A stretch of DNA of 64,000 bases from Usitatibacteraceae bacterium (GTDB lineage: Bacteria > Pseudomonadota > Gammaproteobacteria > Burkholderiales > Usitatibacteraceae): contig JBCKPN010000001.1 of the NCBI GenBank assembly GCA_038901695.1, positions 1,105 to 65,104 of the forward strand, in the 5' to 3' direction. Below the pieces are notes generated by a model, which saw only the letters and a list, made by a program, of their open reading frames with translations, ran no database searches and was not told where the DNA came from. The stretch's first letter is position 1. Each line of letters starts with the position of its first letter. The position numbers and the translations under genes were made by a program. Positions 18,037 through 44,777 of this stretch are shown here, piece after piece.

Positions 18037-18052
18037 GCGAAAGCCCGCAAAC

Positions 18053-21228: not shown

Positions 21229-21308
21229 GATGCTTTCCGGTATCCTTTAGAAAGGCAAAATAGTGTCCGAGCGCGTCAGGACGTGCTTTGAGTAGTTAGT
21301 TCAATGCG

Positions 21309-23156
21309 TCACTCATTTGAATCTGTCCTTGGTGTGGATACGATTGAGAATTGTGGCTTCAGCGTAAGTTCGTCGGGCTGTCGCGCTGAGCCGTCGGGCA
21401 AGTGAGTCTGGCATTCCTGAAACACGCGGTGGGGACAGCGGCGACAGATGTCACTATCGAGCAGGCCGTAGGCTGCGCGCAGCGCCTCCCCTTTATGTGC
21501 GATGACCCGTTCTGCACCCAGTTCGGCGATTTGACCGCCGCGCTCCAGAAACTGTTGCACAACAGGCTGTACGCCGACCAACAGCAGCCCGCCCCCCAGC
21601 AATTTTCGCCGTCTCGCTTCGTGCACCAGTAACTCTGCGCCGGCAAGATCAATGAAACTGACCCCTCGCGCAAGCAGCAATACCCATTTGCGATTTGGTT
21701 GGGACTCGTCTACCTTGCGCAGGTGGTCGCGCACTTGTTCCACCGCGCCAAAGTAGATTGCGCCCGTCACTTTCAACATCGCCATTTGCGGACAAACGGG
21801 AATGTCCGGCGTCGCTGGTACCAGCTTGCGCGAAACGTTCGCCAGCTCGCCGGCTGGCGGCGCACGCTCCTCAATCGATGGTTGCGAGGTACGGTGCAAA
21901 TAGTAGACGAGGGACAGTACGATGCCCAGAAAAAGCCCCTTCTCAATGTCGACGAGTGTCCCGATGAACGTGACAACGAGGATAAATCGCTCTTGCGGCT
22001 GGCGCCTGAGTATCTGACCGATCTGTTTGAAGTCGATCAATGACCAAGCGACAATGAACAAGATCGCCGAGACGGACGCCACAGGCAAAAATGACACTAA
22101 TGGCGCGGCAAAGTATGCGATCGCCAGCAGGAACAGTGCAGACATCGCTGCTGCCAACGGGGTTTTGGCGCCGGATGCAAAATTCACGCCGCTACGATTG
22201 AACGAACCGCTCGCCGTATACGACGAAAAAAATCCGCCCGCGATATTGGAAAGTCCCTGCCCCACGAACTCTTGGTTGCTATCAATGCGCTGGCCTGAAT
22301 GGAGTGCAATCGAGCGCGAAATAGTGAGAGCTTCGGTCAGCGCCAGCAGCGCCACGATGAATGCCGGAAAGAGCGTCGACGTAATAGCCGTATAGGAAAA
22401 ATCCGGCAGTGAAAGAGGCGGGAACGTCGCCTGAATGGTGCCGATGGTTTCTATGCCGGCTTTGTCTGCGCCAATCAGCAGGTTAAACAATAACGCGAGT
22501 AGGCTGCCGGCTACCATGGCGACGATCATGTACGGCAGCTTTGGCGCGTAACGTTTCGCAAGCAAGCCACACGTTAGTGTCAGCACGCCGACCGAGATCA
22601 CCCATACGTGTGTTTCACCGATGTGGTCCAACGCAAACAAAATAGTCTGGTGAAAGTGCAGCCCGCGCGGCACGGCCAATCCTAAAACGTTTCCAATCTG
22701 GCCGGCGAAAATGAGGCAGGCAGCTCCCGCCGTGAAGCCGAGTACGACCGTATGTGAAATAAAGTTCATCAGCGTGCCCAGGCGCGCCAGACCCATTGCC
22801 AGTTGAATGATCCCCGCCAACAACGTGAGCGTGAGGACCAAGCCGATGTAATGGTCGCCTCCGGGTTCCGCCATGGTGCTGACCGACGTAAAGACAATGA
22901 TCGAAATCGCCGTGGTCGGACCGGAGACCATATGCCAGCTGGAACCCCACAATGCTGCCACCACCGCTGGCACCATGGCCGTATACAGGCCGTATGCCGG
23001 TGGCAGGCCGGCAATGCTGGCGAACGCAATCGCCTGCGGCAGCACGATAACGGCACCGGTGATGGCTGCGATCATATCCAGCCTGAACTTGTCTGGGGTG
23101 ACGTGCGGCCAAGCGAGAAACGGCAGCCACCGCGTTAGCGATCCCCGGCTAATCAT
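21309..23156 (-). CDS. SulP family anion transporter with C-terminal STAS domain
   Basis: The typical SulP N-terminus is present (DMIAAITGAVIVLPQAIAFASIAGLPPAYGLY). The STAS-like region reads ...LKVTGAIYFGAVEQV...LLLARGVSFIDLAGAELL. A Cys/His-containing tail follows. Confidence 0.85.
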   Translation of the reverse strand: MISRGSLTRWLPFLAWPHVTPDKFRLDMIAAITGAVIVLPQAIAFASIAGLPPAYGLYTAMVPAVVAALWGSSWHMVSGPTTAISIIVFTSVSTMAEPGGDHYIGLVLTLTLLAGIIQLAMGLARLGTLMNFISHTVVLGFTAGAACLIFAGQIGNVLGLAVPRGLHFHQTILFALDHIGETHVWVISVGVLTLTCGLLAKRYAPKLPYMIVAMVAGSLLALLFNLLIGADKAGIETIGTIQATFPPLSLPDFSYTAITSTLFPAFIVALLALTEALTISRSIALHSGQRIDSNQEFVGQGLSNIAGGFFSSYTASGSFNRSGVNFASGAKTPLAAAMSALFLLAIAYFAAPLVSFLPVASVSAILFIVAWSLIDFKQIGQILRRQPQERFILVVTFIGTLVDIEKGLFLGIVLSLVYYLHRTSQPSIEERAPPAGELANVSRKLVPATPDIPVCPQMAMLKVTGAIYFGAVEQVRDHLRKVDESQPNRKWVLLLARGVSFIDLAGAELLVHEARRRKLLGGGLLLVGVQPVVQQFLERGGQIAELGAERVIAHKGEALRAAYGLLDSDICRRCPHRVFQECQTHLPDGSARQPDELTLKPQFSIVSTPRTDSNE

Positions 23157-25936: not shown

Positions 25937-26319
25937 TCACCCTCGGATCCATCACACCCGGTCTTTCGCTCACCGGTCTTGACCCCACTGGTATTGGGAG
26001 CGTAATTGCCGTTGTGCCAATTGCCGACGGTGCGGTGCAAGTCCTTTACAAAACGCCCGACGGCGCACTCAAGGAACGTCTGCTCAATCGGGGAGATGAA
26101 CCCAACATCTCTATTGCCACCACCGAGCGTCCCTGGTCTTTCGATGGCGATGGCGAGGCGTTCAAGCTCACCGTCGAGGCCAAGCGCATTGATCTCGCCT
26201 TTCTGTTCGACCCGATGATGGACTGGGCTTCATGTCACCCCTCGAAGCCCGTTAGGCATATAGTCTACAAAAGGCGGCCTGAGTTGCAAAACCGTGTCCA
26301 GAGCGAGCCGGTACATTAA
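25933..26319 (+). pseudogene. N-terminal fragment of a large SNF2/DEAD-like helicase (truncated)
   Basis: ...RPWSFDGDGEAFKLTVEAKRIDLAFLFDP matches, from memory, the conserved N-terminal region of large helicases found in restriction/defence loci. The similarity stops near 26215 and no helicase motifs follow. Confidence 0.45.
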
Positions 26320-26633
26320 GTGGTGGTGTTGAATGGCATCGGACAAATTTCGGCTTTAATTACTTGCACTTGCAATCCTGAATTCACGGGAAAAAAAGGA
26401 GACTTATGAGCGAGCAAAAACCCATTACCAAAGTTCCTGACGGCCATACGCGTTTTTTTACAACGCGTCAGATGGCACCAAACGAAAAGGGGTTTGTTGG
26501 TTACGAAACCGTCTGGAAACCACTCCAGAAGGAAGTTGAATACAAGACGCCGAAAAAGCCGTAGGCGTAATGCCGTAGCATCGATGAGCCGGATCGCGCG
26601 GCTAGGATGCGGACCCATAAAGGGAATTGCCTC
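26316..26633 (+). repeat. inverted-repeat module, copy 1 (leader + 52-aa ORF + conserved stem-loop)
   Basis: It aligns with the reverse complement of 34074-34392, with about 25 differences in about 318 bp by manual alignment. Confidence 0.9.
26406..26564 (+). CDS. small basic protein, 52 aa, unknown function (copy 1)
   Basis: The product is MSEQKPITKVPDGHTRFFTTRQMAPNEKGFVGYETVWKPLQKEVEYKTPKKP. A strong SD (AAAGGAG) lies 5 nt upstream. A paralog lies at 34144-34302, with 3 synonymous and 4 non-synonymous codon differences. Confidence 0.6.
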   Translation: MSEQKPITKVPDGHTRFFTTRQMAPNEKGFVGYETVWKPLQKEVEYKTPKKP

Positions 26634-26800
26634 CTGAAAATACCGGCTGCGCGGGGCTATGGCTGCGTCGTGCGTTGCTCGTGACCTCGCCTAACTACTA
26701 ACTACATGGTTATGTCTCGGTCCCTGCGCTCCGTGCTCCTTGCCCTCGCGCCGCTCGCGACGGTTTTTCAGCGGTTTCCTGAAGCCTCCGCGTTGTCAAT

Positions 26801-26831
26801 AAAAAAGCCGCTTTAACAGGCGGCTTTTTTT
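26801..26831. terminator. bidirectional rho-independent terminator (small ORF / sat convergent)
   Basis: aaaaaagccgctttaacaggcggcttttttt forms the stem-loop with flanking A and T runs. Confidence 0.8.
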
Positions 26832-26865
26832 ATGGGGCAGGCAGGTTGTTAAACCCGCAAGGTTG

Positions 26866-28083
26866 TCAGCGTGCGGAATGGCCGGAGAGCTTGACCTCGA
26901 CCTTGTCTTTGGCATCGATGCTGGCGTAGTACTCACGGAGAATTTCCAGTACCTCAGGCCGCGAGAATTCCGCGGGCACCGCATCGCCATCGGAGAGCCA
27001 TTTGCGCAGTTTGGTCCCTGACACCAGCAGGCGATCTTTTTCATCGTGCGGGCAGGTGCGCGCGGAGGCCATGCCGCCGCACTGGTAACACCAGAAGGTC
27101 CAGTCGATTTTCAGCGGTTTGGTTTCCAGGGCACCGGCTGGTATCTCATCAAAAATGTGATGCGCATCGAAGGGGCCGTAATAGCTGCCGACACCGGCAT
27201 GGTCGCGGCCAACGATCTGGTGCGAGCAGCCGTAATTCTGGCGGAACAGTGCATGCAGCAGTGCTTCGCGCGGCCCGGCATAACGCATGTCCAGCGGATA
27301 GCCGGATTGCACGACGGTGTTGGGTGCGAAATACTTGTCGATCAGCACTGCGATGGATTGGGTGCGTACGTCGGCAGGGATGTCGCCGGCCTTCAGGTTG
27401 CCGAGCAGGGAGTGCACCAGTACGCCGTCACAGACTTCGATGGCGACCTTGGCCAGATATTCGTGCGAGCGGTGCATCGGATTGCGCGTCTGGAAGGCGG
27501 CGACCGTGGTCCAGCCATTGGCTTCGAACGCCGCGCGAGTCTGCGCCGGGGTCATGTACATTGCGCCATATTTTTCCGGGAATCCGCCTTGTGACAGCAC
27601 TTTTACCGGACCGGCAAGGTTGATGTCGCTCTGTGACATCACCATTTGGACGCCAGGATGCTCAAGATCGGTAGTCTTGAACACCATCGCACATTCCTGC
27701 GTCTTGTCGATGGTGTATTTCTCCGTGACCTTCATGGTGGCGAGTATTTCGCCGGTGTCGGGATTGGTGAGCGCAATTTCAGCGTTGATTTTCAGCGCGT
27801 CAGCATGTGCCTTGGTTGCAGATAGTGTGATTGGTATTGGCCAGAATAAGTCATTGGCCAGCGTGCAGTGGTCACAGACACTGCGCCAGTCGGCCTCAGT
27901 CATAAAGCCGTCCAAAGGCGTGAATCCACCGATGCCCAACATCAGCAGATCACCTTTTTCTCGGGAAGTGACCGGAATCTTCGCGAATGATTGTGCTCGC
28001 TTTAGTTCTTCTCGCCGCGGTGCGTCATTCAATAACAGCGGCTTTAAAGAGCCACCCCCATGTGGTTTTACCAGTTTTGTCAT
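26866..28083 (-). CDS. sat: sulfate adenylyltransferase (ATP sulfurylase), homo-oligomeric type
   Basis: The signatures [12 protein letters not shown] and GRDHAGVG are present and the length is 405 aa. Confidence 0.93.
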
Positions 28084-28286
28084 CGCAGTTTTTGTAACCT
28101 GTTTTGTTTAGTAAGGGCCACGACTTTGTGCGTTTATAGCTTTTGAGAAGGCAGGTATTGGCGCCGGATGAATTTTGACCACCTGTGCCGGTTCAATATT
28201 GATCAGGGGCTTTTGCTGACGTGAATCCAGTCAGCTATGAATAACTATATCGTTTCTGTGATCGTAGTGACTCCTTTTTTCATCGT

Positions 28287-28470
28287 TGTTAGCGCAAAGC
28301 CTAATGTCCGGTTTCTCCAAAGCAGTAATGTCCGCATTTGGCAATTTATGTGGAGATTTTGCGATGGAGGTCACGACGGGTGTAAAAGCGGCGAAGCGGT
28401 TAGAAATAGTGCTGTGCGTAGAGAAGGGAATGCTGAGTTGTGCAGAGGGCGAGAAGCGGCTAGACTGGCC
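28287..28470 (+). mobile_element. solo end remnant of the same IS family as 39365-40870
   Basis: tgttagcgcaaagcctaatgtccggtttctccaaagcagtaatgtccgcatttggcaa... parallels the right end of the full IS, read in reverse complement. It includes the terminal repeat, the internal repeat copy and the first ~45 codons of the transposase. Similarity is lost after about 28470. Confidence 0.75.
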
Positions 28471-28515
28471 TTTTCAGATATTTCGGTTTACTGTGGCGTC
28501 CGCCGCTGGTCTTAT

Positions 28516-28656
28516 GGGCATCTCTAAAAATCCAAACTTCGTCGCGATGCGTTGTTGCTCAAAAAATTTTATCCCTTACATATCAGGTATATGCTGCGGG
28601 CTAAAATTTTTCTCGCGCCTAGCCTCGCTTAGAATTTTGAATTTTTAGAGGTGCCC
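28516..28656. repeat. MITE-like element, diverged copy C
   Basis: The termini gggcatctctaaaaatcc ... tgaatttttagaggtgccc match the family at 62103-62245 and 63569-63759. The interior is related in the opposite orientation. Confidence 0.65.
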
Positions 28657-28678
28657 TTATAAACATAGGAGAAATACC

Positions 28679-29155
28679 ATGCACACCATCAAGCAGGCAC
28701 TCATCACCCTTGTCAGCTCCGGATTTCTGGTTGCCAGCGGCGGCGCATTCGCGCAGGCGCCGCCTGAAACCCCAGCCAAAGTGCCTGCCGGCATCAACGT
28801 CAAGCTGATAGGTGCAAAAGAAGTGCAGGATCTGCAGGCGAAAGGCGCCGTCCTCGTTGACACCCGCAGGGCTAACGAGTTTGCCGAAAAAAGCATCAAA
28901 GGCGCGATCTCCGTTCCCTATGATCCTGAGAAAAGCGCCAAGACACCGGATGGCATCTTCGATCCGTCGTTAGACCAGTTCGACTTGACTAAGTTTAAGG
29001 ATAAAAATGCCCATCTCGTGATGTTCTGCAATTCCGGTATCTGCTTCAAGTCATATAAAGCGGCGGTTGTGGCGGCTAAAGCCGGTTACAAGAACGTCTA
29101 TTGGTACCGTGATGGCTTGCCTGACTGGACAGCACGCAAGCTCCCGACGGAATAA
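28679..29155 (+). CDS. periplasmic rhodanese-domain sulfurtransferase
   Basis: It has a signal peptide (MHTIKQALITLVSSGFLVASGGAFA) and the PspE-like active-site loop FCNSGICFKS. A good SD is present. Confidence 0.75.
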   Translation: MHTIKQALITLVSSGFLVASGGAFAQAPPETPAKVPAGINVKLIGAKEVQDLQAKGAVLVDTRRANEFAEKSIKGAISVPYDPEKSAKTPDGIFDPSLDQFDLTKFKDKNAHLVMFCNSGICFKSYKAAVVAAKAGYKNVYWYRDGLPDWTARKLPTE

Positions 29156-29254
29156 CGCTATCATTTGAAATCAAAGCTGCGGCCTGCCAATAGTGTGGGC
29201 CGTGCTTGTTTAATTGATTGCGGAAGTTCAATACACCAACAGGGGGAGTAAAAA

Positions 29255-31018
29255 ATGATCTACACCATAAAATCACCCGCCTTGCTCATCATCGGCATAC
29301 TCATGCTGGTCTGGGGAGGCTTGAATACAAGCGGTGCCTTGGACGGCGTGCAATCCTATCTGCAAAAAAGTGCCTACGGCAACCACATGACCGTCAAAGC
29401 GAAGTTTGATTTCGAGGCGCGTGCGGCTACTGAAATCGCAGCAGCCGAAGGCAAGCCAGCACCGGCGGTAATGAAAATGCCGGCCTCGAGCTTCGACGCC
29501 GCAAAGGCCGATCAGGCCAGAATAGTGAATATGTTTGGCGGCACCTTTCTTCTGATAGGTCTGTTCACCCTGCTGTGGAAGCCCAAGCAGGGCGATCTCG
29601 ACTACTTTATTTCGGTAGTTCCGGGAATCGCCTTTATCCTGCTTATTGTAGTTGTTGTGCGATGGGTTCTTGATCCGATTTTTGGCAACTTGGGCAGGGC
29701 GGTTCAGGATGCAGGCATCCTGTCGTGGAACTTTGCCAGGATATTTAACCTAAACCATATAGTGCTGGGGATATTGGCCGGCATAATTGCAGCTAACGTG
29801 TTCAAGATTCCCGCATGGGCCGGCAATGGCGTGCGCACCGCGCGTTTAGGTCTCAAGACCGGCGTGATTCTGCTGGGTACCCTTTACAGCGCGAAAGAAC
29901 TGGCGCAATTGGGCGTGCTGTCCGTGGTCATGATCGGCATCTTCGTGCTGGGCTCGGTATGGCTGGTGCTCATCATGGGCAAGCGCATGCAGTGCACCAA
30001 TTCGATGACGGGCGTACTGTCGGCGGGAATAGGGGTGTGCGGGGTGTCGGCCGCGGTGGCAGCGGCTCCTGTAGTCAAGGCCACGGCCGAGGAGATCGCG
30101 TACACCATCGGCACCGTCCTGATCTGGGGCGTGGGCTGTATGTTCCTGTTCCCTACTGTCGGGCATCTCCTCGAGATGGGTCCGGTACAGTTTGGCGCAT
30201 GGGCCGGAACCGGTATTTTGAACTCCGCACAGGTGGCGGGCGCGGCTTTGGCGTTCGATCCGAATGGCATTGAAACCCTCAAGGTGGCGGAGATTTTCAA
30301 CATCACCCGCGTGCTGTTTCTGCCTCTCATCGTGTTGTGGCTTGCTGCCTGGTATATGAAACATGAAGTGGGTGCGGAGAAAATAAACCTGACACAGGTC
30401 GTTATCTCCAAATTTCCGTTATTCGTGCTCGGTTTTATTGGCATGTTCGCGATGAGCACAATGGGTGTCTTTGCACCAGCCGACCACTATCAGGGCAAAT
30501 ACTTCAGCAGCGCGGAAGTCAAGCAAGACAAACTGCTCAGTGGCAAGGCATTGAGAGCCTTGGATGGCGAGCTGACACGTCTGCGCGGGGCGGAAGATGC
30601 GCAAGTGCTGAGCAAGTTTCTGGTGGAGAAGACTGTGGTGATTGAGAGTCACAGGGTAACGTCGGAAGAAGTCTACAAGGCGTTCGTTGAGTTGATTGCC
30701 AACAAGAAGATGATGACGCGCGACCAGAGTTATATTCTGTTTGCCGTGAGCAAGATGGAGGGGCTGGATCCCGGTGCAAAGGGTGCGATTGACAACGCCA
30801 AAAAGGCAGCAGAATTCGACTCCAAGGTCATCACGGCTTACCGCGACTGGCTTGTATGGCTGTTCGGTTTTGGTCTGGTCGGTCTGGGCATGCAGATTAC
30901 CGGCAAATCGCTTAAGCAGGCGGGTGGTATGCCATTGATCATCGGAGGCACAGTAGGTACGGTGAAAGCTGTCGGTTCCCTGATTGTGGTGATGTTATTT
31001 GTCAAAGAGTTTATTTAA
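29255..31018 (+). CDS. YeiH/UPF0324 (putative sulfate exporter family) membrane protein, enlarged
   Basis: The core reads NHIVLGILAGIIAANVF...KTGVILLGTLYS...GVCGVSAAVAAAPV...GAWAGTGILNSAQVAGAALAF. At 587 aa it carries an extra N-terminal segment and a soluble insert of about 130 aa before the last TM helices. Confidence 0.7.
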   Translation: MIYTIKSPALLIIGILMLVWGGLNTSGALDGVQSYLQKSAYGNHMTVKAKFDFEARAATEIAAAEGKPAPAVMKMPASSFDAAKADQARIVNMFGGTFLLIGLFTLLWKPKQGDLDYFISVVPGIAFILLIVVVVRWVLDPIFGNLGRAVQDAGILSWNFARIFNLNHIVLGILAGIIAANVFKIPAWAGNGVRTARLGLKTGVILLGTLYSAKELAQLGVLSVVMIGIFVLGSVWLVLIMGKRMQCTNSMTGVLSAGIGVCGVSAAVAAAPVVKATAEEIAYTIGTVLIWGVGCMFLFPTVGHLLEMGPVQFGAWAGTGILNSAQVAGAALAFDPNGIETLKVAEIFNITRVLFLPLIVLWLAAWYMKHEVGAEKINLTQVVISKFPLFVLGFIGMFAMSTMGVFAPADHYQGKYFSSAEVKQDKLLSGKALRALDGELTRLRGAEDAQVLSKFLVEKTVVIESHRVTSEEVYKAFVELIANKKMMTRDQSYILFAVSKMEGLDPGAKGAIDNAKKAAEFDSKVITAYRDWLVWLFGFGLVGLGMQITGKSLKQAGGMPLIIGGTVGTVKAVGSLIVVMLFVKEFI

Positions 31019-31029
31019 AGGAGAATATT

Positions 31030-31152
31030 ATGTCAAAACAAAATTTTGAACGCGGTAGCAGCTTGTCAATTTTTGTAAGCGACCGGCGCGAAGACTTAAC
31101 TGCACTGATCTTTGCATTCGCCATTGCTTTCGGCGTTATGCTGACGGTTTAA
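31030..31152 (+). CDS. small membrane protein, 40 aa
   Basis: The product is MSKQNFERGSSLSIFVSDRREDLTALIFAFAIAFGVMLTV. A strong SD (AAAGGAG) lies upstream, the ORF starts 11 nt after the exporter stop, and a terminator follows. It is below the ORF-track size cut-off. Confidence 0.5.
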   Translation: MSKQNFERGSSLSIFVSDRREDLTALIFAFAIAFGVMLTV

Positions 31153-31166
31153 GGTAGTTTAACCAA

Positions 31167-31209
31167 GCGCGGGTGCCCTGCGAGAGCAGGGTTCCCGCGC
31201 TTTTTTTTT
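31167..31209 (+). terminator. rho-independent terminator
   Basis: gcgcgggtgccctgcgagagcagggttcccgcgc is followed by T9. Confidence 0.85.
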
Positions 31210-31240
31210 GGTATTTCACTATGTTTTTTGGTATTTCACT

Positions 31241-31711
31241 ATGCGGAATATAAAAACATTATTACTTGCCCATCACGGCACAACTGGGGCCGCGCTGGCG
31301 GAGACATTGGCGCTGGAGATTGCAACACCTGGCCAGACCAGAATCGTACACCTGCTGGTCGTGCCCGATTTATGGGCAGGCATGCAGGGGGACGACTGGC
31401 TGAACAACGCATCCACACGGGATGCATTCGGCGACTATGTGGAAGGCATTCTAGAGGCGGAAGCCAAGAAACAGCTACGCGCAGTGGAAGGGCGCTGCAG
31501 CGAACGCGGTATCGACTACAAGGCTGTGATGCGTCTGGGTGACCCGGCAGAATGTCTGCTGGAAATAGCGGCACAGGAAAGCGTGACTATGGTCGTGATC
31601 GGCCCGCCCCGCCCCAAGGGTGTAACAGGCCTGCGTTCGCGCATGGATATGGAGAAACTGGCGCGCGGTTTGTCGGTGCCGCTGCTGATGGCTGCACGAA
31701 CTGCTTCATGA
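31241..31711 (+). CDS. universal stress protein family (UspA-like)
   Basis: It starts MRNIKTLLLAHHGTTGA... and shows a typical USP fold pattern with LGDPAECLLEIAAQESVTMVVIG. The start lies in the second copy of a 20-bp tandem duplication. Confidence 0.7.
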   Translation: MRNIKTLLLAHHGTTGAALAETLALEIATPGQTRIVHLLVVPDLWAGMQGDDWLNNASTRDAFGDYVEGILEAEAKKQLRAVEGRCSERGIDYKAVMRLGDPAECLLEIAAQESVTMVVIGPPRPKGVTGLRSRMDMEKLARGLSVPLLMAARTAS

Positions 31712-32355
31712 TGGGAAAACCCCCCGACCAGAGCGGAGAAGATTTTGCCTTGATCAGTGTCGATTTGCCGCTGTCGACGGGCGAACTCTATGCATTTATT
31801 CAGCAGACAGAACGGCTGTTCAGGCTCAATCCCCACCTTGAAATTAAATCTTGGCAGGAGGATGCGCCGGGTAAAATTTTTGCGGGCAAGCAGATTCGCG
31901 TCAATTGCATGAATGAGATGAATGGCCTGACGCAGAGCATGACGCTGAGTGTGAGTGATGTGCAGCCGGAGGTGTCGTTCACGCTCAATTATGACAGCGG
32001 CCTGAAGAAAGCCACTATTTTTACCGTGCAGCCTGTTGGTTCGGCATCAAGCAAACTGGTGGTGAAGGAGCTGTATCCGGACGAGCTCAGCACCGCTGAG
32101 AGGGAGAAGCGATTGAACGAGGTGGACAACTCTCTGCTGCCGTGGGGTGCGGCTATCCACAGCTATTTCAAGCGCAAGTCGCGTTGGGGGTGGCTGCCCT
32201 TTTACAGTTGGCTGCAGAATTCATGCTGGCTGGGTATGATGCCACGCCATCGGCGCATCAGCCGCTTGATTATCTGGACGACGGTGTTGGAGTTTGTGGT
32301 GTTTTTGTTTGTGTTCGCTATTTACTGGTCGGAACTGGGGCGTGCGAATGCATAA
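31708..32355 (+). CDS. hypothetical protein with C-terminal membrane anchor (paralog 1)
   Basis: Its ATG overlaps the USP stop. The C-terminus RRISRLIIWTTVLEFVVFLFVFAIYW is a TM helix. I recognise no family. Confidence 0.6.
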   Translation: MMGKPPDQSGEDFALISVDLPLSTGELYAFIQQTERLFRLNPHLEIKSWQEDAPGKIFAGKQIRVNCMNEMNGLTQSMTLSVSDVQPEVSFTLNYDSGLKKATIFTVQPVGSASSKLVVKELYPDELSTAEREKRLNEVDNSLLPWGAAIHSYFKRKSRWGWLPFYSWLQNSCWLGMMPRHRRISRLIIWTTVLEFVVFLFVFAIYWSELGRANA

Positions 32356-32366
32356 ACAAGCTGAGC

Positions 32367-32477
32367 ATGTCTCCCCGCCAGCGTCGCATCAGCCGTCTCC
32401 TGATCTGGATTGTGGCGCTCGAATTTATCGTGTTCCTGTTCGTGTTTATCATTTACTGGCTGGAATTCTTGCGCTAG
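32367..32477 (+). pseudogene. tail-only partial duplicate of the preceding gene (36 codons)
   Basis: MSPRQRRISRLLIWIVALEFIVFLFVFIIYWLEFLR mirrors the last ~35 residues of 31708-32355. Confidence 0.5.
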
Positions 32478-32519
32478 TGTCGTGAATCGGAAATACGAAT
32501 AGGAACTCCAAGCGCATGA

Positions 32520-33235
32520 GCCCAAGTATCGCACCGTAACGCCGCCCCGGAAAACGCGGTTCGGCGCAGCATCGACGAGGCATCGTCAATCAGATCCAGG
32601 ATTTTTCGCCCCACTGCGCACAGGGGTGCGTATACGAGCCCAGCGCAGGAAGATTACGCCCGCGCCCAGACCCCCCATATCCCGATCGGCCCCGATGCCT
32701 TGTTCGAGTTCGTTGCGGACATTGGGTGCCTGTTGCGTATCAATCCCCATCTCGACATCGAGATCTGGCAGCGCATGCCCGACGGTGTACGATTGGCCGC
32801 GCTCAACGAGACGACAGGGCGACGCATCGAACGGCGGTCCGCGTCGAGACGATCCGGGCGACACGCACCATCGTCCTGAGCTACGAGGCCGACTTCAAGC
32901 GCGCAACCAAGCTTACGGTCGAGGACGGCGATGACCACGGCAGTCGCCTCGTCGTTACCGAGCACTACCCGGTCATCGGGGACGACAAGGATCCGCGCGT
33001 CGCCGAGGTCGATCGCAGCCTGATTCCCTGGGTCGATGCCATCCGCCGCCATCTGCTCGGCCGCGAACGCTGGGGCTGGTTGCCAGGTTGGCGCTGGTGG
33101 AACGAGAGATTCCTGCCCGGCATGGTGCTGCGGCAACGCCGCATCGTGCGCATGATCGTCTGGGTCAGCCTGATCGAATTTGTGGTATTTCTCTTCGTCG
33201 CCGCAATATTCTGGCTGGAACGCCAGCGCGGCTGA
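32520..33235 (+). pseudogene. second paralog of 31708-32355, apparently frameshifted and lacking a start codon
   Basis: The N-terminal homology (AQEDYARAQTPHIPIGPDALFEFVADIGCLLRINPHLDIEIWQ...LNETTGRRIE) is in one frame. The continuation (TAVRVETIRATRTIVLSYEADFKRATKLTV...RWGWLPGW...RRIVRMIVWVSLIEFVVFLFVAAIFW) is in another. The switch is at about 32828, consistent with a 1-nt loss. Confidence 0.6.
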
Positions 33236-33324
33236 TTTTCATGGCGTCAATCCGCGTCATAGCACCCTTCCACCGTGCGCATGCTGGCGTTCCGCGCATT
33301 ACTCCGGTAAACGCCCGGCAAGAA

Positions 33325-33936
33325 TCACTTCTTCGCCGCAATCTCCTGCAACTTCGTCGGCTGAATGATGTGCCCGTCCAGCCCCGCCTCCTTGACTGTG
33401 CCGCCGTAGGCCACGGTCATGAGCTGCGAGTAGTAGAGCACCGGCATGTTGAGCTTGGTGCCCTGCTTGCGGTTGATCTCGGACTGGTAAATCTCGACAT
33501 TGGCTTGGCACAGTGGACAGGGTGTGACAATCATCTTGGCGCCGTGATCGTAGGCCGACTCCATGATGTCACGAATCTGCTTCTGGCTCTTTTCCGGTTC
33601 TGAAAAGGCCAGCGCCCCGCCACAGCAGGTCACCTTCTGGTCATAGGCTGCAATCACCTCGCCGCCCACGGTTTCAACCAGCTTGTCGAGATAGACCGGA
33701 TTCTCGAACGACTCGCCATCAATGCTAAATGGCCGGTTGGTCTGGCAGCCCACGTAGCCGGCAAACTTGATCCCTTCGAGCGATTTGACCACCGGCTTTT
33801 TCAGTTCGTCGTAACCAAAATCGGCGTGGTTCAAAATCGGGTAACACTTTTTCGGGTGGCCATCGGTTGAGTCATAGGCAAACCATCCAAAATTCACATT
33901 GTCCGTGTTACCCAAAAACGTTACTTTTTGAACCAC
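33325..33936 (-). CDS. HdrB-like CCG-domain protein, possibly 5'-truncated
   Basis: It has a single CCG-type cysteine motif set (GCQTNRP...TCCGG...TPCPLCQ). The start is GTG, 4 nt after a terminator. HdrB-type proteins normally carry two CCG domains. Confidence 0.55.
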   Translation of the reverse strand: MVQKVTFLGNTDNVNFGWFAYDSTDGHPKKCYPILNHADFGYDELKKPVVKSLEGIKFAGYVGCQTNRPFSIDGESFENPVYLDKLVETVGGEVIAAYDQKVTCCGGALAFSEPEKSQKQIRDIMESAYDHGAKMIVTPCPLCQANVEIYQSEINRKQGTKLNMPVLYYSQLMTVAYGGTVKEAGLDGHIIQPTKLQEIAAKK

Positions 33937-33939
33937 GCC

Positions 33940-33969
33940 AAAAAAGCCGCCTGTAAAGGCGGCTTTTTT
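33940..33969 (-). terminator. rho-independent terminator after small ORF copy 2
   Basis: aaaaaagccgcctgtaaaggcggctttttt forms the stem-loop with flanking A and T runs. Confidence 0.8.
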
Positions 33970-34073
33970 GTCAGCGTCCGAAGTCCGGCATCAGTCGATG
34001 ATGTGGTAAACCGGTGCCTTCTCCATATCCCACTTGAGAACTTGTGTGCGGTGCCGCCAATGGTATCGCCGCT

Positions 34074-34392
34074 GAGGCGATTCCCTTTATGGACTCGCAT
34101 CCTAGCCGCGCGATCCGGCTCATCGATGCTACGGGTATTACGCCTACGGCTTTTTCGGCGTCTTGTATTCGACTTCCTTCTGGAACGGTTTCCAGACGGT
34201 TTCGTAACCAAAAAACCCCTTTTCGTTTGGCGCCATCTGACGCGTTGTAAAAAAACGCGTGAGGCCGTCAGGAACTTTGGTGGGGGGTTTTTGCTCGCTC
34301 ATAAATCACCTTTTTTTGCCGTGAAGTCAGGATTGTAAGTGCAAGTAACTAAATCCGAAATTTGTCCGGTGCCATTCAAAACCACCACTTAA
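34074..34392 (-). repeat. inverted-repeat module, copy 2
   Basis: It is the reverse-complement match to 26316-26633. Confidence 0.9.
34144..34302 (-). CDS. small basic protein, 52 aa, unknown function (copy 2)
   Basis: The product is MSEQKPPTKVPDGLTRFFTTRQMAPNEKGFFGYETVWKPFQKEVEYKTPKKP. An SD (AAAGGTGA) lies upstream. Confidence 0.6.
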   Translation of the reverse strand: MSEQKPPTKVPDGLTRFFTTRQMAPNEKGFFGYETVWKPFQKEVEYKTPKKP

Positions 34393-34898
34393 ACAGGCCT
34401 CATGAGTGACGGGTCGATATCCGCGCCCGCAATGATCGCCTCGCCCACTCTGGTCTCTTCATCAGTTGCATCGCGCACGGTCAGTATCTCGAGTGTAAAG
34501 ACGACCGCTCTGCCGCAAAGCGGATTGTTGCCATCGACAGTCAGTTTCTCGTCGTCCATCTGCGTCACGATAAAGCTGCGAGGCTGGCCCTTGTCGTTTT
34601 CCATGAGGATGGAGCCGCCGATTTGCCGATACGCCTCGGGGACATTCTCAATGTGATCGGTAAAAACCAACGACTCGTCTCTGGGGCCGAAGATCTGATT
34701 GCCATCGATTGGCACTTCGATCACGTCGCCAACGCACTTGCCCTCCAGCTCCTGATGGACGGAAGGCGCCAGAATTTCATTGTACCCATGGACATAGCCC
34801 AACGGGAAATCGACCCCGGAGAGAACATGCCCCGATTTCTTGTCGGTCACCTTGTAGGTTAATTCGACGAACTTGCCGTCTTGGATGGTTTCACTCAT
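34389..34898 (-). CDS. FKBP-type peptidyl-prolyl cis-trans isomerase (SlyD/FkpB-like)
   Basis: It starts MSETIQDGKFVELTYKVTDKKSGHVLS... and contains ...NNPLCGRAVVFTLEILTVRDAT, the typical FKBP/IF-domain pattern. Confidence 0.75.
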   Translation of the reverse strand: MSETIQDGKFVELTYKVTDKKSGHVLSGVDFPLGYVHGYNEILAPSVHQELEGKCVGDVIEVPIDGNQIFGPRDESLVFTDHIENVPEAYRQIGGSILMENDKGQPRSFIVTQMDDEKLTVDGNNPLCGRAVVFTLEILTVRDATDEETRVGEAIIAGADIDPSLMRPV

Positions 34899-34918
34899 GT
34901 CGAATCCGAACGAACTGC

Positions 34919-35326
34919 TCAAAAGATGGATGCACCAAAAATCTTGACCTCTTCATTTTCATAGCCGAGGACAAGTCTGCCAAGCCATTCGCCTTGCTTT
35001 TTAGTGCTCCGCTGCCGGTAAAGAACCGTCACATGCTCGCCCCGGCGGATAATGCCGAGCGAGTCGACGTCATCAGACAGATTTCTCGCCAGTTCACTAT
35101 TCGCGAACTGATGGCCCGCCACAACATGATTCAAGGCAAGCGCCATGGGAGTGGAAAAATTCTTTACAAATTCTCCGTATTGGCCTTCGTTCGAATGTTT
35201 GACGAGGTCGCGCCACAGGGGATCGGCGATGGCCAGAATCTCTTCATCGGTTTTTCCAATAATGTTCACGCGAGGGTCTTGGCTACCGGAAGAGACCCGC
35301 TCTATAGGGCTCACAACACTCGACAT
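34919..35326 (-). CDS. hypothetical protein, 135 aa, downstream of aprA
   Basis: The ORF starts at MSSVVSPIERV, 26 nt after the aprA stop. The longer track ORF (to 35701) overlaps aprA and is not credible. I recognise no family. Confidence 0.55.
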   Translation of the reverse strand: MSSVVSPIERVSSGSQDPRVNIIGKTDEEILAIADPLWRDLVKHSNEGQYGEFVKNFSTPMALALNHVVAGHQFANSELARNLSDDVDSLGIIRRGEHVTVLYRQRSTKKQGEWLGRLVLGYENEEVKIFGASIF

Positions 35327-35352
35327 GCTGGTCTCTTCTGCCTGGGATATTG

Positions 35353-37221
35353 CTACTCGCCATCCGTAACCAAGTGATACAAAGGCGCCTTCTCCATGGT
35401 GTATTCGCCGGTTTCCGGATCGCGACGCGAAACTGTCAGCACGTGCCAACTTTCGTCGTCCAGCTTCATGAAGTCGCCTCGGTAGTAGTAACCCGGCCAA
35501 CGGGTCTCCTTGCGGAACAGCGTGTGCTGCGTAACGCACTCTGCAGCGCGATGACGGTGCATCAATTCCCACGCACGCAGCAACTCGTGGATATCCGCTG
35601 CGGCCAAGCTCTGAAGGTCTTCCTCCATGATCTCGAGCTTCTTGAGACCGATATTCAGGAGCTTCTCGTTGGTCATGTAGTTGACGGTCACTCCGCCGCA
35701 ATACTCGTCCATCAGTTTCTGTAGACGGTCTAGGCCCTGCTTGGGATTGATGTAGTGCGGGTTGACATCGCCCGCCACGATCGCATTGCGGTACATCTTG
35801 TAATGCTCCAGTGGCTTGTAGATCTCTTTCTTGCGACGGTTGATCTGCTCATCGGATACGACGATGCCTTCGGCCTTTCCGTCGTCGATGTATTTGCAGG
35901 CAGCCTTCGCGGCGAGACGACCTTCGGTGAACGAGCCGGCGGAGAATTTGTGCGGCGTGCCGCCGACTGCGTCACCGGCGCCGAACAGACCATCGATCGT
36001 CGTCATGCGGTTGTAACCCCAGAAATACTCGGGAGGGGAAAGGTCCTCGGGACCCGAGCACCAAGCACCAGAGCCAGTCGCGTGCGAGCCCATGACGTAG
36101 GGCTCGGATGTGGTCAGCTCGGGATTCTCGTGCTTGGGATCCACGTCGGTGGCGGCCCACAGAACCGCCTGGCCGACGGTCATGCCGAGGAAGTTTTCCC
36201 AACCGACCTCTTCCAAATGAGGATCCTGGAAGGCTTGCATGGTCACCATGTGAATGGGACCGCGGCCGGCGTTGACTTCGCTGATAATTGCATGGTTGCG
36301 CAAGCAGGTCGGGATTGGCCGATGGGTCAAGTGCGACGCTTCCGGATCGAGATATTCCTTGCCAACCATTTTCTGTAGTTCGGGGAACCATTTGGATTCG
36401 TACTCTTCGCCCAGGCAGTTCTGCGTATAGGTCTTCAGGTGCAGGAAGTAGGCGCCAACCGGGCCATAACCGTCCTTGAAACGTGCCAGCACGATGCGAT
36501 TTTCCATCTGCGTCATTTTGGCGCCAGCGTCGATCATGAGCCCATAGGCAGACGCGGACGACCAGGGCGCATACCAAGTGCGGCCGGCACCTTCGCCCAC
36601 TGAACGCGGTTTAAAGATGTTGGAGGCGCCGCCCGCAGCGCAGATCACGGTCTTGGATTTGAAGACGTGGTAGTTGCCTGTGCGGACGTTGAAGCCAACG
36701 GCACCGGCAATCCGGTTCTCCTTGCTGTCGTCCATCAGCAGGTGGGTGACGCAGATGCGGTTGAAGATCTTGTCCGCCGATTTTTTGGCGGCCTCGGCCA
36801 CGATGGGCTTGTAGGACTCGCCGTGAATCATGATCTGCCATCGCCCTTCACGCAGATAGCGCCCGGTTTTCGGGTCCTTCATGATGGGCAGGCCCCAATC
36901 TTCGAACTGATGCACCGTGGAGTCAACGTGACGGGCCATATCGAACAGCAGGTCTTCCCGCAGCATCCCCATCAGGTCGATGCGGGCGTAGCGGACATGA
37001 TCCTCCGGCTTATTTTCGCCCCAGCGGGTGCCCATATAGCAGTTGATAGCGTACAGCCCCTGGGCGACCGCACCGGAGCGATCAATATTGGCCTTCTCGG
37101 CAATGACAATATTCTTGTCTTGACCCCAGAATCGGGCCTCCCATGCGGCACCAGTGCCGCCAAGGCCTCCACCGACGACTAGAACATCAATGCCTTCTTC
37201 AACGATCGTTTCGTAAGCCAT
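35353..37221 (-). CDS. aprA: adenylylsulfate (APS) reductase alpha subunit
   Basis: The FAD fold VLVVGGGLGGTGAA is present. The length is 622 aa with AprA-typical sequence throughout, and it sits immediately after aprB. Confidence 0.93.
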   Translation of the reverse strand: MAYETIVEEGIDVLVVGGGLGGTGAAWEARFWGQDKNIVIAEKANIDRSGAVAQGLYAINCYMGTRWGENKPEDHVRYARIDLMGMLREDLLFDMARHVDSTVHQFEDWGLPIMKDPKTGRYLREGRWQIMIHGESYKPIVAEAAKKSADKIFNRICVTHLLMDDSKENRIAGAVGFNVRTGNYHVFKSKTVICAAGGASNIFKPRSVGEGAGRTWYAPWSSASAYGLMIDAGAKMTQMENRIVLARFKDGYGPVGAYFLHLKTYTQNCLGEEYESKWFPELQKMVGKEYLDPEASHLTHRPIPTCLRNHAIISEVNAGRGPIHMVTMQAFQDPHLEEVGWENFLGMTVGQAVLWAATDVDPKHENPELTTSEPYVMGSHATGSGAWCSGPEDLSPPEYFWGYNRMTTIDGLFGAGDAVGGTPHKFSAGSFTEGRLAAKAACKYIDDGKAEGIVVSDEQINRRKKEIYKPLEHYKMYRNAIVAGDVNPHYINPKQGLDRLQKLMDEYCGGVTVNYMTNEKLLNIGLKKLEIMEEDLQSLAAADIHELLRAWELMHRHRAAECVTQHTLFRKETRWPGYYYRGDFMKLDDESWHVLTVSRRDPETGEYTMEKAPLYHLVTDGE

Positions 37222-37700
37222 CAGTAGTACACCCCTGTCTTTAGCGTGAGACCGTTGGACTTAAGCGTATGTAAACCGCCATCATCCATGCGGATATATT
37301 TCGGCTCGCTGTACAACAACTCGCTGTCGCGCATTTCCTGGCTGGGCCCGGAAACATCCGCGAGCTTAGGGATCGCCGTCCCCCAGGGCTTGGTGGTAAT
37401 GGGCGACAGGAAGTTCTTTTCCGTACCATTCCGGAATTTGATCTTCCAGGCGATCGTGCCTTTCGCTTCGTCTCGGTCGACACGAACGCTGTGACCGAGC
37501 GGGGCAAAGTCGGCATATCCGCGCACATCGATCGCATTCTGCGGACAAGCCTTGACGCATGAGTAGCACTCCCAGCACATGCTAGGCTCGATGTTGTAGG
37601 CACGGCGATAGGTCTTATCGATGTGCATGATGTCCGAGGGGCAGATGTCGACGCAATGTCCGCATCCGTCGCACTTTGTCATATAAACAAAGGTAGGCAT
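37221..37700 (-). CDS. aprB: adenylylsulfate reductase beta subunit
   Basis: It has two [4Fe-4S] motifs, CDGCGHCVDICP and CWECYSCVKACP. Its stop overlaps the aprA start by 1 nt. Confidence 0.93.
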   Translation of the reverse strand: MPTFVYMTKCDGCGHCVDICPSDIMHIDKTYRRAYNIEPSMCWECYSCVKACPQNAIDVRGYADFAPLGHSVRVDRDEAKGTIAWKIKFRNGTEKNFLSPITTKPWGTAIPKLADVSGPSQEMRDSELLYSEPKYIRMDDGGLHTLKSNGLTLKTGVYY

Positions 37701-37744
37701 AAGTCGGTTCCTCGATCTGTTCTTATAGAATTTGCGGGCTGTTT

Positions 37745-38584
37745 TTAATAGTGACGGGGCGCTTCGCGCTTGATGCCAAGTCCCATGTCCGCCGGAGCGT
37801 CTCGCAACAGTTCCATAGAGTGTCTTTTCTGTTGTTCGGGATCGTCACGGGTCAGCGTCGGCAAATTATCGACCGTACCATTTGCCTTGGATACCCTTTT
37901 CTCGAAGGCCGCTGCGGGCTTGAAGAACATGTGCGCAAACTTGGACCAGGGCACCGATCCGAACAACACCGTGGTGGCGATGATGTACAGGCCGAAGAAC
38001 ACGTCGGCGCCGGCGTTGCCCTTCGCTTGCAGGAAAGCCCAGATCAGCCCCAGCGTGACGCTGGCCAGCAGCGAAAGGATGAACAGATCCGCGCGCATTA
38101 GCCGAAACGGCGATTTGCCCTCGGCGGCGACATCGACGCGGATGAAGAACCAGAACCAGTATCCGCCGACGCAGATCATCAGCCCGCCGATCCACCACAG
38201 TTGCGGCAGTATGGTGGGCGTAGCCGTCGCGGTCGTCGGATAGCAGAAAATCATGAGTGCTGTGGTGACCACATAGATCACGAACCCATACATAGTCAGC
38301 AGATGGGCAATCCGGCGCCGTGCGTTGCAGAACTCCCCGGACAGCAACACATCGACCAGACCAGTCTTGACGGCAATCGACACCATTTCGCCGCCATCGA
38401 CCTCTTTCACGCCTTTGCTTCTGGACTTGCGCCAGTTTTCGAAAAAATACTTGGCACTGCCCTTGTGGATAGTGTCGAACAGAGTCCCTGCCGCAACCAG
38501 CAGGATCATGACAATGACAAAAGTCTGCATGACTGCGGACGGTACGGACGCCGAAAGTTCGGCAAACGGATTAACGTTAATCAT
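37745..38584 (-). CDS. aprM: AprM-like membrane anchor (NarI/HdrE/DsrM-related)
   Basis: It is a polytopic membrane protein directly upstream of aprBA. It has a conserved His-containing helix (ARRRIAHLLTMYGF). The start is placed at MINVNPF. Confidence 0.6.
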   Translation of the reverse strand: MINVNPFAELSASVPSAVMQTFVIVMILLVAAGTLFDTIHKGSAKYFFENWRKSRSKGVKEVDGGEMVSIAVKTGLVDVLLSGEFCNARRRIAHLLTMYGFVIYVVTTALMIFCYPTTATATPTILPQLWWIGGLMICVGGYWFWFFIRVDVAAEGKSPFRLMRADLFILSLLASVTLGLIWAFLQAKGNAGADVFFGLYIIATTVLFGSVPWSKFAHMFFKPAAAFEKRVSKANGTVDNLPTLTRDDPEQQKRHSMELLRDAPADMGLGIKREAPRHY

Positions 38585-38741
38585 CAAACCCCCATTTTTT
38601 ACTGCGGTAATTTTAACCCAGATAGGGCACATCTAAAAGTTCAGTGCATTTTTGATAAATTCTGGTACACGGAGATTAAGCCTGTGCGGCCATAGAAAAA
38701 ACTTGGTGCGGCATCGGGTACAATGCGCGCCGAGGTGTCGA

Positions 38742-44774: not shown

Positions 44775-44777
44775 TGG

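Follow-up and report, generated by a model that had tools for sequence, protein, structure and literature searches.

In the 64,000-nt stretch of an Usitatibacteraceae contig analysed here (the window), two inverted copies of a sequence of about 318 bp bracket 7.4 kb of DNA carrying sat, close to the apr genes for sulfite oxidation. Does such a pair of arms mark a segment that flips, the ends of an acquired cassette, or something else? The first two readings had been put forward in an earlier note on this DNA. The arms are inverted paralogous duplicates of a small gene, s52, and we consider it probable that they represent a passive scar, not a switch, in a hotspot of rearrangement where remnants of IS and MITEs abound.

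The repeat itself was recovered as first described (about 318 bp, about 92% identity and about 25 differences) by repeat search, blastn and MAFFT. In blastn, arm L and the reverse complement of arm R are 92.16% identical over 319 columns (E ~1e-131), and their MAFFT alignment contains 24 substitutions and one 1-nt indel. The repeat search returned two arm pairs, 26316-26574/34134-34392 (259 nt, 92%) and 26573-26633/34074-34134 (61 nt, 93%), which belong to a single repeat, the match being split at the 1-nt indel. The longest identical tracts measure 39, 34 and 29 nt. The alignment also bears out the abrupt loss of similarity at both ends. No third copy was found by blastn within the window, where the next best match of the arm has an E value of 0.69, so that exactly two copies are present there, far beyond chance expectation. 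Both arms are complete gene modules, each made up of a 90-nt leader, an intact 52-aa ORF (s52) with a strong ribosome-binding site and a 69-nt tail (table 1).

Table 1. Features of the window around the two s52 modules
Feature	Positions	Strand	Basis or remark
up84, 84-nt stretch upstream of arm L	26232..26315	+	left-boundary alignment of L009, L010/11, L012-18, L020
Arm L, paralogous s52 module (leader, CDS, tail)	26316..26633	+	repeat search, alignment, blastn
s52_L CDS (52 aa plus stop)	26406..26564	+	AAGGAG RBS 7 nt upstream; translation
sp167, spacer specific to L-type units	26634..26800	+	blast
hp_L, bidirectional terminator-like hairpin between s52_L and sat	26801..26830		repeat search; folding
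sat (ATP sulfurylase, 405 aa), convergent with s52_L	26866..28083	-	PF01747, PF14306
sat upstream region	28084..28155	-	in L009/L020 joined via ~16-25 nt to y stop codon
IS fragment, 5' part of transposase gene, abutting sat unit	28286..28461	+	blastn
Segment B (rhodanese through ORF 31552-32355)	28679..32355	+	Pfam
Rhodanese	28679..29155	+	Pfam
PF03601/YeiH-like gene (YeiH-type exporter)	29255..31018	+	Pfam
USP	31208..31711	+	Pfam
ORF 31552-32355, last gene of segment B	31552..32355	+	
Decayed, incomplete copies of ORF 31552-32355 (its 3' part)	32361..33229	+	tblastx, 48-68% aa identity
HdrB/SdhE-like remnant, C-terminal half only	33325..33822	-	PF02754 (CCG-domain)
MITE-like element, 117 nt, perfect 14-nt terminal inverted repeats (GGCGTGGTTCAAAA)	33823..33939		
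hp_R (33940-33969) and sp104, ancestral spacer with bidirectional terminator-like hairpin, downstream of resident s52	33940..34073	-	
Arm R, resident (orthologous) s52 module, 3' end of apr operon	34074..34392	-	repeat search, alignment, blastn
s52_R CDS (52 aa plus stop)	34144..34302	-	translation; alignment
y, SlyD-like FKBP-type peptidyl-prolyl isomerase, 169 aa	34389..34898	-	translation; NCBIfam NF008008
x, conserved 135-aa protein between aprA and y	34919..35326	-	translation
aprA-aprB-aprM span	35353..38632	-	
aprA	35353..37221	-	Pfam
aprB	37221..37700	-	Pfam
aprM	37745..38632	-	Pfam; weak QmoC-like matches

The s52 gene encodes a real, uncharacterised protein family. Its homologues fall into 446 clusters at 90% identity and 65 clusters at 50% identity, and are spread over at least 582 species-representative genomes or loci. 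Nucleotide diversity at codon positions 1, 2 and 3 is 0.079, 0.085 and 0.295, respectively, third positions being ~3.5 times more diverse than the others, which indicates purifying selection on the protein. At 72 of the 75 testable genome loci, s52 lies directly 3' of y, as the last gene in the order aprM-aprB-aprA-x-y(SlyD-like)-s52, and it is the conserved terminal gene of the apr operon in sulfur-oxidising Beta- and Alphaproteobacteria of soil and fresh water. Its product, we infer, is probably a small beta-hairpin protein that would serve the AprMBA/Sat module of sulfite oxidation as an accessory.

The resident copy is arm R, which keeps the ancestral position and is still joined to y and to the ancestral spacer and hairpin. 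The stop codon of y forms the first bases of arm R, and the placement of y directly upstream of s52 is conserved across relatives. On the other side, the spacer is homologous to the post-s52 spacer of canonical copies, namely those of L031 (97 nt, 82%), L023, L080 and L030, and its hairpin has folding energies of -23.5 and -23.0 kcal/mol. Further into the block, positions 32629-33350 are 93.5% identical to the DNA directly after s52 in L039. The statement that aprMBA continues beyond this arm holds in so far as aprA, aprB and aprM are found there, but x and y intervene between aprA and the arm. The match of y to NCBIfam NF008008 (E 7e-18) lies below the curated cut-off; x has no match in Pfam or NCBIfam, and its position is occupied by genes of 103-135 aa in L002-L008 and L108-L111.

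In Allochromatium vinosum, according to the consulted part of Parey et al. (2013; PMC3779200), sat lies upstream of aprMBA and is co-transcribed with it. As described there, that system resembles the window in combining a membrane-anchored APS reductase (AprM, AprB, AprA) with a dissimilatory ATP sulfurylase for sulfite oxidation, and in a sat-apr linkage that varies between species. Unlike it, the operon of the window has three additional conserved genes after aprA (x, the SlyD-like y and s52), which find no mention in the same part of that paper, and its sat is located downstream of apr, in an orientation and position that vary even among relatives at least 94% identical.

Arm L is an s52 paralog that travels with sat as a unit of ~1.9 kb (26232-28155). 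Besides the convergent sat, this unit contains a new spacer and a hairpin similar to that of arm R (-17.7 and -15.9 kcal/mol, z -5.5 and -4.8, on the two strands). Arm L shares 96-98% identity with copies of its own type (L-type) in L009-L020 and 92% with arm R. The up84 stretch is common to all L-type copies and missing from arm R and the canonical copies, and no homologue of sp167 was found outside L-type copies. The L-type module stands beside at least four different left neighbours across related contigs, and to this extent only does it behave as the dispersed element contemplated in the earlier note. The two encoded proteins differ at four residues, including V31F at a nearly invariant position. 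In a neighbor-joining tree, arm R and the L-type clade are sisters and both fall inside the L029-L031 group, indicating a duplication within the lineage.

A comparison of the sat/apr order among relatives, as had been suggested, supports an inversion of the sat/s52 unit. In relatives at 87-90% identity sat is convergent with the apr operon, whereas in the window and its closest relatives it runs in the same direction as apr. At some stage, then, the sat/s52 unit has been inverted relative to apr. The convergent s52/sat arrangement is present in L005-L008, in 14 genome loci within 1.5 kb and in all seven JGI loci that include sat. In the closest relatives (L009 and L020), y is followed by ~16-25 nt of the s52 module and then by the sat upstream region; both share a 2-nt deletion at this junction, and both lack window positions 28156-34375/34381 (6.2 kb, including arm R). 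Moreover, segment B (28750-32361, 94-97%; rhodanese-YeiH-USP-ORF31552) stands in L020/L112 on the opposite side of the sat unit, from which an IS-end remnant separates it. The gene order is circularly permuted: sat unit, IS and segment B in the window; segment B, IS and sat unit in L020/L112. The junctions among sat unit, IS remnant and segment B (28156-28750) and the join of hdrB remnant, MITE and hp_R were found only in the window; the contigs of these close relatives come from metagenomes or MAGs and could themselves contain misassemblies at repeats.

We infer from these comparisons an order of events in which the ancestor would have had apr through y-s52, then a hairpin, then a convergent sat. 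The s52(-hairpin-sat) end may have been duplicated in this lineage, with the sat-bearing copy coming to lie in inverted orientation to apr. Insertions, shifts and deletions of DNA between the two s52 copies would later have followed through the activity of IS and MITEs, and the sister lineages L009 and L020 presumably deleted the resident copy, leaving ~16 nt of it. A simple duplication does not account for the sharp outer edge of arm L, which falls exactly at the y stop codon.

The arm L/sat unit might instead have arrived from a related strain, carried on DNA flanked by IS and landing inverted near apr, with subsequent loss of the native sat, a history that we regard as rather improbable. 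The L-type unit is 97-98% identical between contigs whose flanking genes share only 82-84%, for which lateral spread offers a better fit than a purely vertical duplication within the genome. In the window, L020 and L010/11 the unit borders directly on IS ends or fragments, its spacer and upstream stretch are novel, and the mosaic identity of apr among the window, L020 and L039 indicates frequent recombination between strains. However, outside the L-type clade the L-type module has arm R itself as its nearest relative (92.2%), the canonical copies of L030 and L031 being 89.6-89.7% identical, and no donor lineage was found.

The content previously reported for the enclosed block (sat, rhodanese, PF03601/YeiH-type exporter, USP, a truncated HdrB-like gene, an IS fragment, a MITE-like element and decayed copies) was confirmed. 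The supposed helicase fragment beyond arm L has no Pfam or NCBIfam match even at E <= 1 and was not upheld. The IS fragment is 79.7% identical in blastn to 40871-40695 (opposite strand), which belongs to an intact-looking copy with HTH transposase domains (ORF 40085-40879). The HdrB-like protein is truncated, since only the C-terminal half of the HdrB/SdhE models is covered (positions ~126-290 of the NCBIfam profile), and the listed start of its ORF (33936) falls within the MITE, an identical copy of which (100%) lies upstream of aprM in L039.

These mobile remnants, together with a GC content that dips to 0.49-0.51 around 27.5-29.5 kb and the lack of 28156 to ~34375/34381 in L009 and L020, would suit arms that are terminal inverted repeats of an acquired transposon-like cassette bringing sat, rhodanese, exporter and USP. 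We find this unlikely. Arm R is the chromosomal gene expected after y and retains its ancestral downstream spacer; the block contains no intact transposase; its outer ends show no target-site duplication (GGTACA/TTAAGTGG versus CCACTTAA/ACAGGCC); and relatives have segment B and the sat unit in other orders, so that the 7.4 kb cannot be a single moving element. The rearranged region is indeed bounded by the repeats, but these are conserved chromosomal gene copies and not element ends or switch sites. The locus resembles IS-mediated hotspots and composite or translocatable units in its permuted gene order and in the IS fragments abutting the sat/s52_L unit in three genomes. It differs in having neither an intact flanking IS pair nor detectable target duplications, and a defined mobile unit is therefore not demonstrated.

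An actively invertible segment, in which RecA acting on the 318-bp arms or a site-specific invertase would toggle sat between co-directional and convergent relative to apr, is very unlikely, and the proposal that the present order is one of two isomers found no support, although a minority of flipped isomers could exist in the source population. The arms, with the identical tracts given above, are long enough for homologous recombination, and both orientations of sat relative to apr occur in nature. Nevertheless, flipped junctions were found in none of about 20 closely related assembled contigs, and no invertase or integrase gene lies in or beside the block. A crossover after the arms diverged would have left chimeric arms, and none are present at the 25 diagnostic sites: arm L is of the L type at 24 of 25, and arm R agrees with the canonical L039 copy at 20 of 21 comparable sites, including the P7 and L14 codons. 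An 8% divergence and the lack of mosaicism argue against ongoing flipping. One site at arm position ~270 (GCATC), common to both arms of the window and not found in other L-type copies, could represent a short patch of gene conversion.

Inverted paralogs that recombine actively stay nearly identical through gene conversion. In Salmonella and E. coli, inverted paralogs such as tufA/tufB and the rrn operons allow RecA-dependent inversion of the chromosome as well as gene conversion; frequent conversion keeps the copies ~99% identical, and inversions are observed. The arms are like them in bracketing a segment whose inversion would disrupt no gene, and unlike them in being 92% identical, non-mosaic and only 318 bp long, with no inverted isomer seen. 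Site-specific invertible switches (Hin/Gin/Cin, fimS, shufflons) rely on short repeats of tens of bp and on a dedicated recombinase whose gene lies in the segment or next to it. There too, inverted repeats flank a segment whose orientation could alter gene context, but the repeats of the window are whole gene copies and no recombinase accompanies them.

A chimeric contig or a false join at the repeat, the inverted arrangement existing in no cell, is hardly credible: the sequence is probably of MAG or draft-assembly origin, the ends of related contigs often lie close to s52 copies and the L013 MEGAHIT contig has a suspicious palindromic pair of them, but the 25 differences allow assemblers to separate the arms, the left junction (up84-s52_L-sp167-sat) was independently assembled in L009, L010, L020 and L112, and L039, likewise assembled independently, has s52_R joined to y and adjacent to 32629-33350.

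The inverted pair of s52 modules is best seen as a passive by-product of rearrangement beside the apr operon and not as a switch. It is a possible, though unproven, substrate for rare RecA-mediated inversion, and such an event between the arms would restore the ancestral convergent s52/sat arrangement beside apr.

The inverted repeat that brackets the 7.4-kb sat-to-hdrB-like block is a gene duplicated in inverted orientation within a region scrambled by IS elements, and structurally it is ordinary. The repeat search returned it as two adjoining pairs (26316-26574/34134-34392 and 26573-26633/34074-34134), which count as one repeat because a 1-nt indel splits it. The earlier note had described copies about 92% identical, with about 25 differences, a 1-nt indel and sharp ends, and this description was borne out: blastn aligned the left copy (arm L) with the right copy (arm R) over 319 columns at 92.16% identity (E about 1e-131), MAFFT counted 24 substitutions and one indel, and the aligned similarity stops abruptly at either end. 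No third copy was found by blastn in the 64-kb window, the next match having E = 0.69. Each arm contains a 52-codon ORF, here called s52, preceded by AAGGAG or AAGGTG and lying on the strand that points into the block. Its 90-nt leader and 69-nt tail are conserved in related species, showing that the 318 bp make up a whole gene module; the repeat consists of copies of this module diverged by 8%, not of short crossover sites.

Coordinates of the two arms and of the genes and elements related to them
Feature	Position	Strand	Description
arm L	26316-26633	+	left copy of the repeat
arm R	34074-34392	-	right copy of the repeat
s52_L CDS	26406-26564	+	
s52_R CDS	34302-34144	-	
y	34898-34389	-	169 aa, SlyD-like FKBP; NCBIfam PPIase match at 7e-18, under the curated cut-off
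x	35326-34919	-	conserved 135-aa protein between aprA and y
MITE-like element	33823-33939		117 nt, perfect 14-nt terminal inverted repeats GGCGTGGTTCAAAA
IS ORF	40085-40879	-	HTH transposase domains

A scan of one genome per species located s52 at 582 loci at least, of which 80 species-representative loci were fetched. The homologues form 446 clusters at 90% identity, nearly all of them 52-53 aa long and labelled 'hypothetical'. An exhaustive profile search revealed a narrow family, without informative domain fusions, that comprises only 65 clusters when grouped at 50% identity, and sequence searches of Pfam, NCBIfam and PDB returned no relatives. Exact-protein look-ups for s52_R, the hdrB-like ORF, y as a 177-aa ORF and the rhodanese likewise gave no record. 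Among 75 distinct coding sequences, the mean pairwise diversity at codon positions 1, 2 and 3 was 0.079, 0.085 and 0.295, from which we conclude that s52 is a translated gene under purifying selection. Twelve residues are invariant (P6, P11, G13, T20, K28, G29, G32, W37, Y46, T48, P49 and P52), and all are present in both arm ORFs. By our own count from the alignment, s52_L and s52_R differ by 7 nonsynonymous and 3 synonymous changes, and s52_R carries V31F at a nearly invariant position, suggesting that constraint between the two copies was relaxed through redundancy. The AlphaFold2 model predicts, with moderate confidence, a two-stranded beta hairpin (pLDDT 68.6).

Other readings of the module were discarded. 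One was a 100-aa ORF encoded opposite to s52 in arm L (26316-26618), which does not survive the indel in arm R; the codon statistics agree with the frame of s52. A conserved RNA structure in the tail found no support, as alifold across species yielded about -0.3 kcal/mol, though single sequences fold to -23 kcal/mol, and an Rfam scan of the whole window for known RNA families matched only a tRNA. Across species the leader (26316-26405 and 34303-34392; canonical copies in L022-L080) shows roughly the same degree of conservation as the coding sequence; it holds a CTTGCA-CTTGCA direct repeat and may be a regulatory site. A scan for sigma-70-like promoters found none in either arm or in the 84-nt stretch upstream of arm L.

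The normal place of s52 is at the end of the apr operon. The order aprM-aprB-aprA-x-y-s52 is kept in nearly all the fetched loci, and s52 directly follows y in 72 of the 75 with enough upstream sequence. None of the three genes x, y and s52 reaches the cut-off of a Pfam or NCBIfam family, and for x these databases offered no family at all. The first bases of arm R are the stop codon of y, s52_R lying directly downstream on the same strand, and therefore arm R is the resident copy. It agrees with the canonical copy of the related contig L039 at the P7 and L14 codons and at 20 of the 21 diagnostic sites (the positions that differ between the arms) that can be compared. The 134 nt beyond arm R, comprising a spacer and a hairpin (33940-33969), are homologous to the DNA that follows canonical s52 in four related loci (L031, L023, L080 and L030). 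On a Usitatibacter MAG contig (L071, 1073-4492) two direct s52 copies occur (aprA...s52 ... y-s52), so that s52 duplication is not unique to the window. One MAG has two apr-s52 loci (L093 and L094), and a MEGAHIT contig (L013, 1-641) has two convergent s52 copies separated by 122 nt, which are either a genuine palindromic duplication or a hairpin artefact of assembly.

Arm L has a different setting. It is preceded not by y but by an unrelated 84-nt stretch (26232-26315), and it belongs to a unit, here called L-type, made up of this stretch, the s52 module, a 167-nt spacer that occurs nowhere else, a bidirectional terminator-like hairpin (26801-26830) similar to the one beside arm R, and convergent sat. 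Other contigs carry L-type copies that match arm L at 96-98% identity, and what lies on their left varies: small ORFs and SulP genes in the window and L009, an IS3-type fragment in L010/11, a Rieske gene in L012-18, and USP with ORF31552 in L020/L112. In L009 a DmsC-family gene (313 aa, 4493-5434) separates the SulP genes from the small ORFs upstream of s52_L; its absence from the window (near 25590) marks another indel of this neighbourhood.

The earlier note had proposed establishing the ancestral order of sat from related genomes. Relatives at 85-91% identity gave an order, namely apr...y-s52 followed by a hairpin and convergent sat; it is seen in L005-L008, in 14 genome loci with sat within 1.5 kb, and in every one of the seven JGI loci that include sat. 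In the closest relatives sat is co-directional with apr. In two of them, L009 and L020, about 16-25 nt of the s52 module separate the y stop codon from the sat upstream region (window 28155 downward), and both have the same 2-nt deletion at the y/sat junction; window 28156-34375/34381, arm R included, is missing. The remnant of the module shows that both derive from a state with s52 after y. In L020 and L112, the rhodanese-YeiH-USP-ORF31552 segment (window 28750-32361, 94-97%) is on the other side of the sat unit, separated from it by 575 bp that contain an IS-end remnant, a 49-nt piece in L020, while in the window an IS fragment (28286-28461) sits between the sat unit and this segment. In L039, window 33350-32629 comes directly after s52. 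Taken together, these variants amount to at least three gene orders among strains at least 94% identical, and a simple block flip is not among them. Along the apr region (34393-38650), identity among the window, L020 and L039 forms a mosaic when compared in 300-nt windows (for 37950-38249, 94% to L039 vs 87% to L020), and this switching between relatives indicates that homologous exchange is frequent within the operon.

A neighbour-joining tree places arm R as the sister of the L-type clade, with both nested in the canonical copies of L029-L031, which points to a probable duplication within this lineage. Since arm R and L039 have derived sites in common, the duplication would be older than the split between the window and L039. 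In the most likely history, which starts from an ancestor with the convergent s52/sat arrangement, the s52-hairpin(-sat) end would have been duplicated, and the copy bearing sat would have come to lie in inverted orientation to apr and acquired a new spacer. Insertion and permutation of the rhodanese-YeiH-USP-ORF31552 segment and the hdrB remnant, through IS and MITE activity, would have followed, and the resident copy would have been deleted in L009/L020. A single inversion between the arms from the ancestral arrangement fails as an explanation, since the spacer and hairpin of the ancestral order are still beside arm R and did not move with sat. No remnant of a second sat was found beside the arm R hairpin. 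A serious alternative is that the sat unit originated by lateral import. In L012-L018 the L-type unit (window 26232-26700) is 97-98% identical to that of the window, whereas the flanking Ank and Rieske genes (window 20065-21354) are only 82-84% identical, a disparity suggesting that the unit may have spread laterally or recombined recently.

The suggestion that the block is invertible, its present order being one of two isomers, is now very unlikely: the arms are not chimeric, no related contig carries flipped junctions, and Pfam and NCBIfam searches (all ORFs of 150 aa or more between 21 and 53 kb, plus smaller block ORFs) detected no domain of a resolvase or an integrase inside the block or near it. 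Of 25 diagnostic sites, 24 have the L-type state in arm L; arm R has the R-type state at 20 of 21, and one ambiguous site is common to both. Neither these sites nor the related contigs gave any sign of exchange between arms or of an alternative isomer, so that apparently no crossover has taken place inside the arms since their divergence. Relatives found in a JGI metagenome scan with a 29-nt pattern were at 85-91% only, too distant to test isomers. The GC skew, positive over 29-32.5 kb, was rejected as a date for an inversion, as skew follows gene strand. The minimal processing segment of RecA is about 25-30 nt, and the arms, being homologous inverted copies, have identical tracts at or above this size (39, 34, 29 and 25 nt); at 8% divergence, the tracts of 39, 34 and 29 nt allow only inefficient RecA recombination. 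One could imagine s52 as an unrecognised obligatory subunit or assembly factor of AprMBA/Sat, the duplicate having travelled with sat because selection keeps a copy beside both apr and sat, and the inverted pair then giving rare RecA-mediated flips of the block with two viable isomers within populations; we regard this as improbable. That the repeats are the ends of an acquired cassette is unlikely, given that the block contains no intact transposase between the arms (only the 176-nt transposase fragment 28286-28461) and no DDE or rve domains by Pfam, the outer flanks (GGTACA before arm L, ACAGGCC after arm R) have no direct repeat in common as a target-site duplication, and only the arm-L/sat sub-unit, not the whole, is found in other contexts, arm R being fixed after y.

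Mobile and decayed sequences are frequent around the arms. The IS fragment in the block is 80% identical to 40695-40871, the 5' part of what looks like a fuller IS copy (about 39.4-40.9 kb), and the 49-nt piece in L020 belongs to the same IS end. The MITE-like element, which provides the truncated hdrB-like ORF with its apparent start codon, has a 100% identical copy at a different locus (L039, 4946-5062, with flanks about 93% identical), upstream of aprM and cutting an FAD-protein gene; in these two copies, the only ones seen, no target duplication was recognised. The MITE of the earlier note may instead be a 38-nt inverted pair (28513-28550/28622-28659), 79% complementary, 71 nt apart and just upstream of the rhodanese gene. 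Its decaying paralog series was recovered by tblastx as two or three decayed partial copies (32361-33229) of the 3' part of ORF 31552-32355, at 48-68% aa identity. Elsewhere in the window, direct repeats of 52 and 111 nt (62102-62250 vs 63568-63764; 96-98%) lie about 1.5 kb apart near a DUF302 gene, one of them being partly palindromic (62103-62245 self-inverted), and self-blast detected palindromic stretches at 2942-3011 (70 nt, 87%) and 18048-18085 (38 nt, 95% self-complementary).

The window also contains two SulP transporters (Pfam) and, at 42923-56959, a reverse-dsr-type cluster with dsrAB (two NIR_SIR subunits), dsrMK, dsrL, dsrOP and dsrN, its products including a sirohaem synthase, a DsrN-like amidase, NrfD/DsrP, a 4Fe-4S DsrO-like protein, a DsrL-like oxidoreductase and DsrK-like and DsrM-like proteins. 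The presence of this cluster places the apr/sat locus in a sulfur-oxidation island, and the host is a betaproteobacterium that oxidises sulfur and is closely related to Usitatibacteraceae MAGs. In Allochromatium vinosum, sat precedes aprMBA and is transcribed together with it, and sat-apr linkage varies among Chromatiaceae (PMC3779200).

As a repeat, the pair is a further instance of an already known type of feature, and the most interesting element is the aprMBA-x-y-s52 gene set. What matters is the content of the repeat, a 52-aa gene that is tightly conserved yet lacks annotation. Alongside x and the SlyD-like y, it stands last in the aprMBA operon of hundreds of uncultured Beta- and Alphaproteobacteria from soil and freshwater. 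The locus shows how quickly sat-apr linkage is reshuffled between closely related strains and, should s52 belong to the APS-reductase machinery, the indirect sulfite-oxidation pathway would have one component more than is now known.
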